The notes under the pieces were generated by a model. It made no database searches. It worked only from the letters and a program-made list of their open reading frames with translations, and was not told where the DNA came from. Positions 18,152-45,659 of a stretch of DNA of 55,550 nucleotides are shown in pieces; the first letter of the stretch is position 1, and each line of letters begins with the position of its first letter. The position numbers and the translations under genes are program-made. Source of the DNA: Escherichia phage CSP1C. The DNA lies in the sequence record PQ202980; one strand, given 5' to 3'.

Positions 18152-18436
18152 ATGACGAAGAATGAAGGTATTGATAAAGTTGTTGAAGGACTTTCTATTC
18201 GTGCTCATGTTATAGCAGATGAAGGTCATGATCAACTTACTATTATGAAATCCGCATTCAGCGATTTCAAGTCGCTTGGAAACTTAAGCGGGTTAATGAC
18301 TGTGGTGTCGACCGGAAAATTAACCCAGCAGCAAATCAGTCTAGCTCAGCGTATTGCTGTTAAAGTTATTGCGGTACTTGGGATGATTGAAGCTGAAAAG
18401 CCCAGTTCCAAGCAGGATAACGAAAGCGACCTTTAA
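18152..18436 (+). CDS. hypothetical protein
   Basis: 94 aa ORF with plausible SD. Confidence 0.45.
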   Translation: MTKNEGIDKVVEGLSIRAHVIADEGHDQLTIMKSAFSDFKSLGNLSGLMTVVSTGKLTQQQISLAQRIAVKVIAVLGMIEAEKPSSKQDNESDL

Positions 18437-18447
18437 GGAGGTCTACT

Positions 18448-18651
18448 ATGTGTGGTAATACTAACCGTTGCTGTTTAGGCAGTCCTGCAACACAAGCAGG
18501 TATACTTCAGGGGCAATTGGCTCAAGCAGCGTGTAATTGCAAGACGTTTCAACCAGTAGCGCCAACTCCGGTGTTTGTGAATGCTTTTGCACCGCCTGTT
18601 TTCAATACTTTTGGCGTATACCCATACGGTGCTTTCTTTCGTATATTCTAA
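18448..18651 (+). CDS. Cys-rich small protein
   Basis: 67 aa with 5 Cys and an aromatic/Pro-rich C-terminus; strong SD AAGGAGG; followed by terminator. Confidence 0.5.
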   Translation: MCGNTNRCCLGSPATQAGILQGQLAQAACNCKTFQPVAPTPVFVNAFAPPVFNTFGVYPYGAFFRIF

Positions 18652-37833: not shown

Positions 37834-37874
37834 TTTAGTTTCCTCTTGGGCGGATTGACCGCCCGTTAATGTGG

Positions 37875-38285
37875 TTAAGCTTTATTTGGAACGATTTCCA
37901 GTGACGCAGATCCAACTTTAGATTCAACGCACTGGTTGAAGACTGCGGCTTGCTCCGCTGTAAGTTTACGCCAAGCCGCAACTTTCAATACAGGTTTATT
38001 TTCCACAAGCTGATCAACGTTAACACCAACTTTAATCAGATCGCCCAGGATTCCGTTAAGGCTTGGAAGATCAATCTTACGATCAATCTTGTGGGTCATT
38101 TTCATAACCCCGCCAGTAATTTCAACTTTATTAGTCCCCTCAGACGGCGCTGGGAAATAGGACTTAATAATCTTATCACGGAGTGCTCGCTCGCGAGCTT
38201 GCAGCTTCTGCAATTCCGCTTTAGTTTTATACCACTCAATTACATCTGCTTCTGTTGCTTGTACTGCTTTATCTGCGTCGAACAT
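37875..38285 (-). CDS. hypothetical protein
   Basis: 136 aa from ATG 38285 with SD GAGGA. Confidence 0.45.
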   Translation of the reverse strand: MFDADKAVQATEADVIEWYKTKAELQKLQARERALRDKIIKSYFPAPSEGTNKVEITGGVMKMTHKIDRKIDLPSLNGILGDLIKVGVNVDQLVENKPVLKVAAWRKLTAEQAAVFNQCVESKVGSASLEIVPNKA

Positions 38286-38948: not shown

Positions 38949-39416
38949 TTATTGAATTGAACCGCGATCAATTAACCATTGTTTCGCGTGAGCTTTAAAA
39001 ATAATGCGATAGTCATCAAGACTAATCTCCGCGCGGATGGAATCTTTAACTTCGTACCACTGCCACTCACCATTGCTAAAGACAACTGGATTGAGTGGTA
39101 GAACAACCTTCCATCCTTTACGTTCTATTTTATACATCAGAACTGGATATCTGCCAATCTCTTTAGCGGATTGAACAGTCTGCTTCCACCATGTGTTCAC
39201 CTGTGGCGTAGCATGGTTTTTTACTTCAACCGCATGGTGGCATGTATTGCTAATATCGCAACCACCGACCGCACTTTGATTCTGGTTACGCTGAGCAATA
39301 GGTTTCTCCGGTAACTGCATCCCCAGCTCTGCGTAGATTTCGGCATAAATTGCATTAAAGAAATCGCATACTTCCCGCTCACCGCGTTGACCTTTAGCGC
39401 GAATATTTACTGCCAT
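38949..39416 (-). CDS. putative PD-(D/E)xK Holliday-junction resolvase-like nuclease
   Basis: ATG 39416 with SD GGAG; N-terminal AKGQRGERE followed by D...EVK arrangement. Confidence 0.45.
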   Translation of the reverse strand: MAVNIRAKGQRGEREVCDFFNAIYAEIYAELGMQLPEKPIAQRNQNQSAVGGCDISNTCHHAVEVKNHATPQVNTWWKQTVQSAKEIGRYPVLMYKIERKGWKVVLPLNPVVFSNGEWQWYEVKDSIRAEISLDDYRIIFKAHAKQWLIDRGSIQ

Positions 39417-39489
39417 GTTTGTCTCCATAACTTTAATGTAAAACACTTCATAAAGAATTTTATATTGAAGTTCTGTTGATCTCAAGGAA

Positions 39490-39520
39490 CAAAAAAGCCC
39501 AGGCATAAGGATTCCTGGGC
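39490..39520 (-). terminator. rho-independent terminator
   Basis: GCCCAGG cataaggatt CCTGGGC stem followed on the minus strand by TTTTTT. Confidence 0.65.
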
Positions 39521-39833
39521 TCTCTTGATTGTCGGATAGCTTACTTTGACTGCCGTCTTCGTCTATCCTGGCCTACTTGTACAGCCTCGCCAAAGGCTGG
39601 TGACGGTTTGGTACATCTGGCGCCGTCGAGTTAAACATCGTTCACGTCGTTCAGTAAGTTGCGGGTTTATCCTGTCCGCTCCAGGAAGCCCAGCGAAAGT
39701 AGTTGCTGTAAGGAGGTACAGCTACCGCTTTCAAGGGCTTGAGTTAAGCATCGTTCACTAAGTTAATGTTGTTAAATTGTTAAACCTCGTTAACTGTGGT
39801 TATCTTAAAGGATGCAGTCTTGAATGGCAAGCT

Positions 39834-40148
39834 TCAATTTTGCGCGGTTCCCTTTGCCGCTTTTGGTGCTAAAGTACCATCATTTAACATCAACTCAAAA
39901 CCTGTTACTTGATCGGTTGGAACAATAGGGTAATTCATGATAGCCATGTGGATACGACACCCTCCATCACATTCGTCAATGTATTCACTACCCCAATAGT
40001 ATAAATGACCATCTCTTCGAATATCCATTGCTGTAGGGAAATCTACAAGAATTCTTTTGATTTCTTTTCGTCCTTCTTTATGCAGATTAGTTTCAATACG
40101 GATAAGCTCCGCATAAATTGCTTCACAGATAGTATTTACAATACTCAT
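39834..40148 (-). CDS. hypothetical protein
   Basis: 104 aa ORF; start overlaps upstream gene stop. Confidence 0.45.
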   Translation of the reverse strand: MSIVNTICEAIYAELIRIETNLHKEGRKEIKRILVDFPTAMDIRRDGHLYYWGSEYIDECDGGCRIHMAIMNYPIVPTDQVTGFELMLNDGTLAPKAAKGTAQN

Positions 40149-41018: not shown

Positions 41019-41050
41019 CAATAAAGGGCCGAAAGGCCCTTTATTTATTT
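41018..41050. terminator. bidirectional rho-independent terminator
   Basis: AAGGGCC gaaa GGCCCTT stem with flanking T-tracts on both strands; convergent genes. Confidence 0.7.
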
Positions 41051-43381
41051 GCTTAAGTCTTTGAAAACACTCTCAATTGACTCGTCTATATACCATCCCA
41101 ACCCCCTGAAATTACGCTTCAATGCATCCTCACGCGTAACCGGAACAAGCGCGCCCATGTCTACAAGTTGTTTGATAGTGAGGTCTGTTGCAGTACCTGC
41201 TCCCATCCTGTGATTCTTGAATGCTGCTAACCCGTAGGTTCTGCGTGTGATAGTTGCCTTCGGAATAATACCGTCAACTCGCAGCTCCTTACGATCACAT
41301 GCAATTTTACCGCCAAGATAATCTTTGCAGACCTGACAGATAGCCTTCACACGCGTTTCATCATCACCGCCAATAGTACCTTTTTCCCATGCATTGATCA
41401 TGATGTCCTGTCCATGCGTAACAAAATCTACCGCCCATTGCATGTGATTGGGCTGAACGACAGGATTGATCCAGTTTTCCCCAACTGCTAACAGGGATGC
41501 AAGACGCAGAGCTTTAAGGTGCGCACGGTTCCACGGCTGACGGATAGCTTCGTCTTTAGTTGCGTTAATGTGTTCATCACACAGCAAGTTAAACTCCCGT
41601 TCAATCCTTTCCGCTTCAGGGCTTAACTGGACGGTAACGGTCTGGAACTTCGCCATTGTCACTAACGTGTGGTTAACAAGATGGCACACCATGTCCTTTA
41701 ATTGCTGTGGCATTGTGATTTCAGGATTTTCGTTTGCAGGAACACGATCCCCTTCATATTGCACAATGTGGAAACGGGACAAGAAACCGTCTTCCATCAT
41801 TTCACGTGTTAACGCTTCAAAGAATGTGTCCGGTGTTGTTTCGCCCAGTATGCTGAACGCCACCCCTTCCATTGTCTTGGTATTATTAGCCTTATCAGAA
41901 TACCCAATACCGCCAACAACATCCATCGCACCAGATTTTTGATACACATCTGTAATAGTTTGCTTCAGGGTATAGTTTGCAGTGCCAGGTTGAGCCGTTG
42001 CCATACCTTTAATGGTTTTACCAAACTCACCGTTAATATTCACAAACGAAGTATGATCCGCAAAACTTTTACGCAAGGCAGGACCGGAAGCATAGTTAGT
42101 CATGTCTACAAATTCATGCACTTGCGGTAATTGCTCGCCTACTTGCTTGCAGATATAGCTGGGCCCGGCGTGAAGCATTTCTTTGCCCACACCTGATCGG
42201 GCAATGAGCACAAAGTAACCGTTCAGCCCTGTGTTGGTGATAGTATTCCACACCTTGCCGCATACGCCTGACAAGAATGCTAACGATGCAGTGATTGCAA
42301 TTTCTTTCACCGGACGCTGCGATGCTTTGTAGATATACTTCGCAAGCTCACCAGCAAGTCCCGGCGGCCATTCAATAGCTGTTGCATCAATGGACGTGCT
42401 TTCTGCAACTACTATTTCACCGGACGGGCTGACTGTGGTTACAGGCATTTCCGTTACCTGCTGCATTGCACTGTGTGCGGCTTGCATACGAGCAGCGTAA
42501 TCCCGCGCCAGCGCCGCTACGTTTTCCTGGGCAATGCGCTCACGCTCCATGCGACCGCGGCACATACGCAAACAACGGTCAATATGAACATTGTTCTTAT
42601 TAGCCTTCTCACGTTTACCCAGTGCACTGTAACGGAACAGACGACGACATTGCTCATTACTTTCTGTGTAGAATGCATACATAGAGATAAGAGCAAGGTC
42701 TGCTTCAGACTGGGACGGGAATCCCATTTCAACCCATTCACCATTGAATAGGCGTGCATACTTATCGCCGTTGTCTGCTTCAAGCGCACGCTGGTGAATG
42801 GTTGCATCGTCTTCTACCGGATCTTTTTCTACCAGTTCAATTTCATATGTCTTGCGCTGAAGATCAATTTCATTCACAAGCATAGTAAGGTAATGATCAC
42901 GTTCGGCAACTGGTTTATTGTAGACAGGATTGCCCGTGCAGATAATAAAACGCTCCTGACTATAAACCTCGACACCATCACGTCGGCGACCTTTACCGAT
43001 CTTCCCTCTTAACCACAGGTGGACGCCCAAGCCTGAGCGACTTACTTCGGTGTAAGTATCGAACGCGGTCATGATCTGTTCGAAGCGGCGCAACTGTTCC
43101 GGCGTCGTGTGCTTCTTGGGATCAGGTTCATTGGTAGCGTTCTTCACATCCAGGTCGATGCAGGTGAACGGGTCTTGCGCAGTAAGCACGAAGCCAATAT
43201 AAGGTTTATTGAAATGAGCGGCGCAACCTTTGGCAGCTTCAAACGTCATAAGCATATCCGGATCGGTAACGTCCGCCGCCATCAAACGTCCAATATCGTT
43301 GTCCCATACAAGCGGCTTTTTATCCGCATCGGCGACCGCCCATTGGGGGAAAGCTTTAATTTCAGCGGGAAACAGTTCCAT
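41045..43381 (-). CDS. DNA primase (primase-polymerase-type N-terminal domain) with C-terminal P-loop NTPase domain
   Basis: 778 aa; size and position in replication module; putative P-loop around ARSGVGKE. Domain assignment by eye only. Confidence 0.55.
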   Translation of the reverse strand: MELFPAEIKAFPQWAVADADKKPLVWDNDIGRLMAADVTDPDMLMTFEAAKGCAAHFNKPYIGFVLTAQDPFTCIDLDVKNATNEPDPKKHTTPEQLRRFEQIMTAFDTYTEVSRSGLGVHLWLRGKIGKGRRRDGVEVYSQERFIICTGNPVYNKPVAERDHYLTMLVNEIDLQRKTYEIELVEKDPVEDDATIHQRALEADNGDKYARLFNGEWVEMGFPSQSEADLALISMYAFYTESNEQCRRLFRYSALGKREKANKNNVHIDRCLRMCRGRMERERIAQENVAALARDYAARMQAAHSAMQQVTEMPVTTVSPSGEIVVAESTSIDATAIEWPPGLAGELAKYIYKASQRPVKEIAITASLAFLSGVCGKVWNTITNTGLNGYFVLIARSGVGKEMLHAGPSYICKQVGEQLPQVHEFVDMTNYASGPALRKSFADHTSFVNINGEFGKTIKGMATAQPGTANYTLKQTITDVYQKSGAMDVVGGIGYSDKANNTKTMEGVAFSILGETTPDTFFEALTREMMEDGFLSRFHIVQYEGDRVPANENPEITMPQQLKDMVCHLVNHTLVTMAKFQTVTVQLSPEAERIEREFNLLCDEHINATKDEAIRQPWNRAHLKALRLASLLAVGENWINPVVQPNHMQWAVDFVTHGQDIMINAWEKGTIGGDDETRVKAICQVCKDYLGGKIACDRKELRVDGIIPKATITRRTYGLAAFKNHRMGAGTATDLTIKQLVDMGALVPVTREDALKRNFRGLGWYIDESIESVFKDLSK

Positions 43382-45611: not shown

Positions 45612-45659
45612 CTTCTTATCCTTAGGGCTCCTGCAGAAGCCCGTCAGTGTGGTTATAGA

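Follow-up and report, generated by a model that had tools for sequence, protein, structure and literature searches.

A probable small-RNA gene with a modular, strongly conserved fold in the replication module of Seuratvirus phages

CsrB/CsrC and RsmY/Z are stand-alone RNAs of a few hundred nucleotides, transcribed from a sigma-70 promoter to an intrinsic terminator and built from repeated structural modules, short GGA hairpins, whose number varies between strains and whose loops are conserved. Small RNAs of the DapZ and MicL type come from 3' UTRs and have an internal promoter at the end of the coding sequence. ToxI type III antitoxins and the pseudo-ToxI decoys of phages consist of identical tandem repeats of 34–48 nt, which form pseudoknots and lie beside a gene for a ToxN-type RNase. 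Stand-alone small RNAs of phages are thus a kind that is already known. Non-coding DNA in a replication module may also be an origin, of which the P4 ori/crr is an iteron type. For pRN1 and phage BIP-1, a structure-conserved stem-loop of ~100 nt downstream of rep has been proposed as the origin (PMC4234260).

The element described here resembles CsrB/CsrC and RsmY/Z in its predicted stand-alone transcription, sigma-70 promoter, intrinsic terminator and length, and in its repeated structural modules with conserved loops and strain-variable number. However, GGA is not enriched in it, its modules are box-hairpin-pseudoknot units of ~105 nt instead of short GGA hairpins, and it is phage-encoded and has no Rfam match. 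As in the DapZ and MicL type, the promoter sits where the upstream gene ends and the upstream mRNA would share the terminator, but the element is much longer and more structured, and we found no seed-target pairing. As with ToxI, repeats that form pseudoknots precede a terminator, beyond which lies a gene, and the repeat number varies between phages; unlike ToxI, the units are ~105 nt long and diverged, and the downstream PDDEXK_15/RusA-like nuclease gene has its own promoter.

The window, that is, the whole stretch of DNA analysed, is the 55,550-nt sequence of Escherichia phage CSP1C (PQ202980), which is Cronobacter phage CSP1 (KY982929.1) read in the opposite direction. CSP1 belongs to the Seurat/CAjan group (Seuratvirus, Queuovirinae). 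All genes around the element are on the minus strand except one small plus-strand gene, which lies between the prim-pol/helicase gene (41045..43381, minus strand; NrS-1-type prim-pol helix-bundle domain and DUF3987) and two small minus-strand genes of unknown function. The last of these two is 39834..40148 (CSP1_065 in GenBank). Beyond the non-coding gap, also on the minus strand, lies the RusA-like/PDDEXK_15 nuclease gene (38949..39416), followed in order by the genes for dUTPase, a DUF7173 protein, RNase H and ligase. The element is therefore located between the primase-helicase gene and the RusA-like/dUTPase/RNase H/ligase genes; three genes separate it from the primase gene, which is 1.2 kb away. 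The original prediction described a non-coding segment of 310 nt. Its non-coding nature was borne out, but the unannotated gap extends over 417 nt (39417–39833), since 39416, and not the ATG further upstream at 39506, is the start of the RusA-like gene; the GenBank annotation of CSP1 is empty across these 417 nt. The 104-aa protein encoded upstream showed no homology to the 9g protein at the same position.

A promoter scan identified a sigma-70-type promoter on the minus strand at 39802..39830, with the −35 hexamer TTGCCA (39830–39825), a 17-nt spacer and the −10 hexamer TAAGAT (39807–39802), matching the consensus at 9 of 12 positions. The −35 hexamer begins 4 nt past the stop codon of gene 39834..40148, and transcription is predicted to start at ~39795. 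At the other end, an intrinsic terminator (39491..39527, minus strand) would form the 3' end of the RNA. Its GCCCAGG/CCUGGGC stem (39520–39514 and 39503–39497), which is G+C-rich and can be extended to 14 pairs, is followed by U6 (39496–39491), confirming the strong minus-strand terminator that had been proposed from inspection of the sequence. A simple terminator scan had overlooked it because its loop is longer than 8 nt. Promoter and terminator thus enclose ~304 nt of the minus strand, from ~39795 to 39491. Both were retained in phage STP-SP5, in which the element is ~80% identical; the promoter there, TTGACA-17-TAATAT, is nearer to the consensus, with the same spacing and three substitutions in the spacer. 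In the Dru_SM1 lineage, a different hairpin with a U-run takes the place of the terminator. The element therefore has its own same-strand promoter and Rho-independent terminator, conserved in relatives, as is characteristic of small-RNA genes. The RNA may therefore also make up the 3' end of the transcript of the upstream operon.

A further minus-strand promoter, TTGAGA-17-TAAAAT (39457..39485; 10 of 12 consensus matches), is located past the terminator and serves the RusA-like/dUTPase operon. Its hexamers and spacing were retained in Dru_SM1, where the surrounding sequence differs and an HNH gene has been inserted downstream, and in the SA126VB record it carries a promoter annotation from the depositors. 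This separate downstream promoter, as judged from its sequence, marks the putative RNA as a unit of its own.

Two 18-nt direct repeats had been reported at 39628–39645 and 39741–39758. Their positions proved correct; they are alike at 17 of 18 bases, and their starts are 113 nt apart. A search of the 55.5 kb with up to three mismatches returned these two copies only (0.08 expected), and a third, degenerate copy with 78% identity lies at 39777–39794. The 18-mers head two diverged units of ~105–113 nt each, which aligned to each other at z=5.6 with the box and z=2.1 without it. The 18-mers are the boxes of two diverged tandem units and, on this reading, part of the modular build of the RNA, not origin repeats. 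The consensus of the box within the modules is GUGAACGAUGYUUAAC. Box 1, GUGAACGAUGCUUAACUC (39741..39758, minus strand), is the second of the reported 18-mers and heads module B; box 2, GUGAACGAUGUUUAACUC (39628..39645, minus strand), is the first and heads module A. In STP-SP5, box 1 retains its core AACGAUG and box 2 has decayed to GGAAACGAUGUAUAUAG, so that the two copies there have only this core in common and the pair is not conserved.

Module B consists of the box, a 55-nt hairpin and an H-type pseudoknot; module A consists of the box and a hairpin with an invariant 16-nt loop, after which come two more hairpins and the terminator. Between the pseudoknot and box 2, a variable linker (39646..39660, minus strand) holds the 9-mer (U)GAACGAYG, which runs on into box 2. 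The copy number (2 to 3) and the sequence of this 9-mer differ between otherwise near-identical phages: the Dru_SM1 linker contains one additional 9-mer, and the linkers of L019 and L023 also differ. In the metagenomic contig L021, the linker carries a 99-nt insertion that constitutes a third module, with a variant of the box, a hairpin of ~57 nt with a different loop and again a pseudoknot. The module number is therefore two in most phages and three in L021, and such variation resembles that seen in multivalent RNAs.

At its 5' end, the RNA would begin with an AU-rich hairpin or imperfect palindrome (39756..39798, minus strand), which contains the degenerate third repeat copy (39777–39794). 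It is the least conserved structural part and is broken in STP-SP5 by an 8-nt deletion. Hairpin B (39686..39740, minus strand) has 55 nt and 21 pairs, and it folded alike in CSP1 (z −5.3) and STP-SP5 (z −3.8). Six of its pairs have changed on both sides, and 99.2% of the cells are paired. Its invariant apical ACCUCCUUA (plus strand TAAGGAGGT, 39709–39717) is the 3'-terminal nonamer of E. coli 16S rRNA, the anti-Shine-Dalgarno tail, for which the chance expectation in this RNA is 0.001. The third module of L021 lacks the anti-Shine-Dalgarno loop, which is therefore not a feature that unites the modules.

The H-type pseudoknot (39661..39685, minus strand), CCUG-GA-GCGG-A-CAGG-AUAAAC-CCGC, has stem 1 CCUG/CAGG and stem 2 GCGG/CCGC. 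Stem 2 is GUGG/CCAC in STP-SP5, and in the extra module of L021, CCAG-GA-CUGU-A-CUGG-AUAAAC-ACAG, both stems are changed while all loops are identical; the stems therefore covary across the three versions. A scan of IMG/VR for the loop pattern returned only chance matches outside Seuratvirus. Its 27 unrelated matches are a natural control, and none of them has all four stem-2 pairs.

Hairpin 4 (39602..39627, minus strand), with the 5-bp stem GACGG/CCGUC and the 16-nt loop CGCCAGAUGUACCAAA, was invariant in all sequences found. A 17-mer of this loop plus one stem base had 99 matches in unrelated taxa among 185,579 genomes, about the number expected by chance, and none in enterobacteria. Hairpin 5 (39582..39599, minus strand), CAGCCUU-UGGC-GAGGCUG, shows one G-C to G-U change in STP-SP5 and no broken pairs. 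The CGCCA of the hairpin 4 loop could kiss the UGGCG in the hairpin 5 loop, a contact that we infer from complementarity; both partners are invariant, which places it beyond the reach of covariation. Hairpin 6 (39534..39568, minus strand) pairs GGAUAG with CUAUCC around a small GAC/GUC stem.

Folding energies, compared with shuffled sequences, gave z −4.4 for the minus strand and z −2.3 for the plus strand. For covariation, we used a model of 64 pairs and 12 distinct sequences, which represent essentially three lineages; with such low diversity, the covariation rests on few events. Across the 12 sequences, 98.9% of the model was paired. Both sides had changed in 12 of the 64 pairs, compared with 2.4±1.3 in shuffles (none of 500 as high) and 1–3 when the partners were slid. 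The compensatory changes of STP-SP5 lie in hairpin B and pseudoknot stem 2, and at its base, hairpin B of the L023/L010 lineage has U-A in place of C-G. In hairpin 6, the Dru_SM1/L018/SA126VB lineage has replaced the whole outer stem, GGAUAG/CUAUCC, by AAAUAAGG/CCUUAUUU around a similar loop. PLYYY01 shows a further independent flip, in the inner stem of hairpin 6, from GAC/GUC to GUC/GAC.

Standard pairs made up 98.9% when the model was read on the minus strand, versus 90.5% on the plus strand. In 13 pairs, at least one sequence has a G·U, giving 66 G·U cells versus a single C·A. Read on the plus strand, all 66 would become A·C, indicating that the selected structure is that of the minus-strand transcript. 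Compensatory substitutions that keep the structure on the transcribed strand, the other mark of a small-RNA gene, were thus found; judged by these alignments, the substitutions in the helices track base-pairing and not codons.

Searches for the element retrieved 34 phage records together with 8 metagenome contigs and 3 from IMG/VR; in about 30 Seuratviruses it is 96–100% identical. Among the phage records, nine were at least 99% identical to CSP1, 23 were 95–99% identical, one was 94.9% identical and STP-SP5 was ~80% identical. In the same genomes, nucleotide identity to CSP1 was 96.5–99% for the RNA, 93–98% for the RusA-like gene, 74–99% for the upstream gene, ~80% for the dUTPase gene and 74–96% for the 3' part of the primase gene, so the conservation of the element equals or exceeds that of its flanking genes. 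The upstream gene can be as low as 74% identical beside an element that is 98% identical, and the primase 3' part is ~74% identical in phages with a 98% identical element. Such conservation in a sequence that would have no synonymous positions indicates that selection probably acts on nearly every base. BLAST searches of E. coli genomes and plasmid collections returned nothing similar to the element. A covariance model of it detected no homologue in the syntenic regions of 9g, PSTCR4, Vid5 and Vibrio phage 83AMN, nor in those of Ec1-ASingh, Kpn2-P2, Siara and NP1. Nonagviruses have their own conserved non-coding stretch of 457 nt at the same position, ending in a terminator; the same place is a long gap in PSTCR4 and Vibrio phage 83AMN and is occupied by a tRNA-Ser in Vid5.

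Rfam 15 gave no match anywhere in the window at gathering thresholds, searches of 701 nt and 61 nt at E up to 10 returned noise only, and ARAGORN predicted no tRNA or tmRNA. Several identities were considered and rejected. The element is not a mimic of the 16S 3' domain: alignments to 16S, 23S and 5S rRNA on both strands fell within the shuffle distributions, and ACCUCCUUA alone is common to the element and rRNA. A CsrA sponge was rejected since GGA occurs five times (4.8±1.9 in shuffles) and two of these sites are GGG in many relatives. A type III antitoxin was rejected on the length (~105–113 nt) and divergence of the units and on the neighbouring genes, one for a PDDEXK_15/RusA-like protein and the other for a protein unassigned to any family. 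UGUAC, considered as a recognition motif of a TGT-like enzyme, was dropped, with three copies (P ~0.002) of which only one is kept in STP-SP5. GGAUAAACC and GCGCCAG resemble, by eye, the E. coli type I-E CRISPR repeat; the resemblance was judged too weak, and it does not occur in the other module. Pairing of the 5' GAGGU with the anti-Shine-Dalgarno loop was rejected, as it is not conserved in STP-SP5. The boxes and loops had no extended complementarity to the rest of the phage, extended anti-Shine-Dalgarno pairing in the phage was not above chance, and no seed-target pairing was detected. Literature searches on the element, on Seuratvirus transcriptomes and on the octamer described next yielded nothing relevant.

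No other 8-mer of the window comes close in over-representation to the octamer TGTGGTTA/TAACCACA, which has 42 copies where 1.7 would be expected. The copies are spread over both strands, roughly one per 1.3 kb, and related genera have the octamer at high density too. The primase of the NrS-1 prim-pol recognises 5'-TTTGGTTA-3' and has a second site, 5'-GTGG-3'; its helix-bundle domain was reported to bind the recognition site (PMC8718748). TGTGGTTA is one base off the NrS-1 recognition sequence and contains 5'-GTGG-3', and the CSP1 primase carries the NrS-1 helix-bundle domain. The octamers are probably the priming sites of the phage. One copy overlaps the −10 hexamer and the start of the RNA; it is not conserved in STP-SP5 and is unremarkable given the 42 copies in the window.

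Taken together, we consider it likely that the minus strand from ~39795 to 39491 encodes a discrete, conserved, highly structured non-coding RNA of ~304 nt that acts in trans. Of the two readings offered by the original prediction, a structured RNA and a replication origin, the former gained support from the promoter, the terminator, the covariation and the strand-specific G·U pairs, and the latter found little. A DNA-level origin, with the GTTCAC-containing repeats as iterons or the hairpins as a stem-loop origin recognised by the phage primase-helicase, is quite improbable, yet the location invites it. The element sits in the replication module, 1.2 kb from a primase-helicase gene that encodes an NrS-1-type prim-pol helix-bundle domain and DUF3987, and the corresponding position in 9g, PSTCR4 and Vibrio phage 83AMN is taken by unrelated non-coding DNA, a pattern that would fit an origin too and counts against the RNA. 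There is also the precedent of pRN1 and BIP-1, whose replication proteins likewise join prim-pol and helicase and whose proposed origins, like the element, lie downstream of the prim-pol-helicase gene and keep their structure despite sequence change (PMC4234260). In those cases there is one stem-loop, whereas here several hairpins and a covarying H-type pseudoknot lie 1.2 kb from a primase gene whose 3' part is only ~74% identical where the element is 98% identical. The direct repeats recall iteron origins such as P4 ori/crr, and an AT-rich palindrome (39756–39800), which overlaps the promoter −10 and the 5' hairpin, adjoins them together with one copy of TGTGGTTA (39795–39802). Iterons, however, are at least three near-identical repeats, alike within a genome, and this locus has two good copies, 113 bp apart and diverging in STP-SP5, plus one at 78%; the copy number of the 9-mer varies, no DnaA box (up to one mismatch) was present in 39137–39946, and the octamer copy is expected by chance and missing at this spot in STP-SP5. 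Unlike the pRN1, BIP-1 and P4 origins, the element does not maintain its repeats and is enclosed exactly by a promoter and a terminator, the latter substituted by a different one in one lineage; selection for its pairing, with 66 G·U cells that the opposite strand would turn into A·C, is confined to one strand.

The alternatives at the RNA level concern where the RNA would act. Because the −35 hexamer begins 4 nt past the upstream stop codon, read-through transcripts would share the terminator, and attenuators likewise have genes behind a terminator; moreover, hairpin B, with its 21-pair interrupted helix, is similar in size to phage RNase III sites. The RNA could on these grounds be purely cis-acting, either as the structured 3' UTR of the upstream operon, serving as stabiliser, as terminator or as carrier of RNase III or RNase E processing sites, or as a leader/attenuator that controls read-through into the RusA-like/dUTPase operon. 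We regard this as unlikely, given that the element has a conserved promoter of its own, that the downstream operon has another past the terminator, retained even where the HNH gene is inserted, and that the upstream gene can be 74% identical beside a 98% identical element. In addition, a terminator or processing site needs far less than a ~300-nt RNA in which loops are invariant, modules are duplicated and a pseudoknot is present. The pseudoknot could also be an aptamer, for example for preQ0/preQ1, with a topology akin to that of the preQ1-I riboswitch: stem 1 has 4–5 bp, stem 2 joins the loop to the 3' tail, the third loop (AUAAAC) is A-rich, and the loops are invariant while the stems covary. 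The second loop is a single A, however, and the second loop of preQ1-I contains C. A ligand-sensing RNA of this kind is very improbable, since no Rfam riboswitch model, including all preQ1 classes, reached E=10 even in the 61-nt search, and the pseudoknot is adjacent neither to an expression platform nor to a queuosine gene, in whose leader preQ1-I would be found. The downstream gene encodes a nuclease and has its own promoter, and the terminator lies ~140 nt beyond the pseudoknot, past three other hairpins. What speaks for such an aptamer beyond its shape is the phage that carries it: these phages make 7-deazaguanine precursors for their DNA, CSP1 belongs to the Queuovirinae, and in the close relative CAjan ~32% of G is replaced by dPreQ0 (PMC6884629). 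Protein coding is hardly credible. A 71-codon plus-strand ORF (39546..39761) does exist, and relatives have CDSs annotated here, such as bas22_0061 and NGRRMQZB_64, but this ORF has a TTG start and, as had been noted from the sequence before, no RBS; it opposes all local transcription signals. It had been described as lying on the wrong strand. In the 80% identical STP-SP5 it is truncated and reframed, and it is therefore not a gene. Short minus-strand ORFs from the AUG inside each box lack a Shine-Dalgarno sequence, and indels of 2 nt and 1 nt in STP-SP5 shift their frame.

The trans-acting non-coding RNA would belong to a family that is absent from Rfam and from the literature searched, and its modular box-hairpin-pseudoknot build is unusual. 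It would act as a stable RNA recognised through its invariant loops, most likely a multivalent platform or decoy that binds a protein of host or phage. Its length, the near-total conservation of its loops, the possible tertiary contact and the duplicated modules of varying number lead us to infer that a partner, most likely a protein, recognises it in three dimensions, rather than that it is a simple antisense RNA. The module B loop reproduces the 16S anti-Shine-Dalgarno tail exactly and could capture either Shine-Dalgarno sequences or tail-recognising factors. A bolder version, which we think rather unlikely, is that of an abundant, modular take-over RNA of a new class: the nonamer, displayed on its covarying hairpin, would compete with 30S subunits for Shine-Dalgarno sequences or trap a factor or toxin that recognises the 16S tail, the modules would dock a protein, and Nonagvirus and related genera would have non-homologous analogues at this locus.

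Structured non-coding RNAs are seldom met in virulent phages and have for the most part not been explored; this one, better conserved than most neighbouring protein genes, would be a core feature of a whole genus. It is carried by phages that serve as laboratory models, among them CAjan, to which CRISPR editing has already been applied (PMC6884629), and KurtStettler (Bas22), GottfriedDienst, SeppeHuegi and WildeMaa of the BASEL collection. The analysis also corrects database annotation, as several GenBank records place hypothetical proteins on the element. If the RNA manipulates translation or host defence, it would represent a new mechanism of phage take-over; if it is instead tied to replication, it would define the origin of the Queuovirinae.

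The mechanically called open reading frame of the RusA-like gene (38949-39506, minus strand) starts at an ATG at 39506, 90 nt further upstream than the annotated gene, and this extension crosses the terminator and promoter. The true start is the ATG at 39416, which is preceded by GGAGA and agrees with GenBank. A Pfam search assigned the product to PDDEXK_15 (phage putative endonuclease) and not to RusA proper. In several GenBank records, hypothetical proteins are annotated over the structured non-coding RNA gene of Seuratvirus, on either strand. Such ORFs are found at 39546-39761 (plus strand) in the window, at L003:2183-2344 (bas22_0061) and at L005:2712-2801 (NGRRMQZB_64 of Dru_SM1). The window ORF and its equivalents in relatives showed no conservation, and they are probably spurious.

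Hairpin B of the RNA carries a loop nonamer matching the 3' end of 16S rRNA. The sole other perfect copy of TAAGGAGGT in the window was located at 18434-18451 (plus strand); a short Cys-rich ORF (MCGNTNRCCLGS...) begins with an ATG 6 nt downstream of it. Complementarity between this site and the RNA loop stopped at the nonamer, with no extension.

Counting of 8-mers in the window identified TGTGGTTA (reverse complement TAACCACA) as the most over-represented: it occurs 42 times, on both strands, where chance would give about 1.7 occurrences. Copies are spaced by about 1.3 kb and most are intragenic; examples are found at 39795-39802 (plus strand), 37870-37877, 41668-41675 and 45648-45655. A high density of the octamer was also observed in the loci of 9g, PSTCR4 and Vid5. 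The recognition site of the NrS-1 prim-pol is TTTGGTTA, and GTGG is also an NrS-1 site (PMC8718748); the CSP1 octamer differs from TTTGGTTA by one base and includes GTGG. The NrS-1 helix-bundle domain is present in the CSP1 phage primase. The copies are probably priming sites across the whole genome; no strand switch indicating an origin was visible in the window. A perfect 11-bp palindromic hairpin, AATAAAGGGCCGAAAGGCCCTTTATT (41020-41045), lies between the primase gene and a convergent plus-strand gene, and probably terminates transcription in both directions. The plus-strand gene encodes a 74-aa protein, which gave a weak match to the AP2 domain (E 0.006).

In one Seuratvirus lineage, that of Dru_SM1 (L005:2774-3413), SA126VB (L157) and L018, hairpin 6 and the terminator, which make up the final third of the RNA, have been exchanged for an isostructural version of different sequence. 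The RusA-like gene of this lineage is divergent (61% identical), and an inserted gene for an HNH homing endonuclease separates it from the RNA. The arrangement resembles a junction left by recombination or homing at the 3' end of the RNA. A natural variant of the RNA on metagenome contig ERZ1026901 NODE-154 (L021:991-1402) has three modules, the third being a 99-nt unit of box, hairpin and pseudoknot inserted in the variable linker.

Nonagvirus has its own conserved 457-nt non-coding stretch at the same position (phage 9g, L012:2544-3000), ending in a terminator upstream of the RusA-like gene and 90-100% identical between 9g and 17 other Nonagvirus records. It showed no sequence relationship to the Seuratvirus RNA; its folding exceeded that of shuffled sequences (z -2.65), and in phage SP8 it is interrupted by an HNH gene. 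This stretch may be an analogous RNA gene. Remoter relatives have non-coding gaps of 490-640 nt with a strong terminator at the end, directly upstream of the RusA-like gene, as in Providencia phage PSTCR4 (L013:2361-3000) and Vibrio phage 83AMN (L015:2513-3000), the latter with ACCUCC within one hairpin loop. In Pantoea phage Vid5, a tRNA-Ser (L014:2697-2784) occupies this position. The locus upstream of the RusA-like gene appears to serve generally as a site for stable RNAs.
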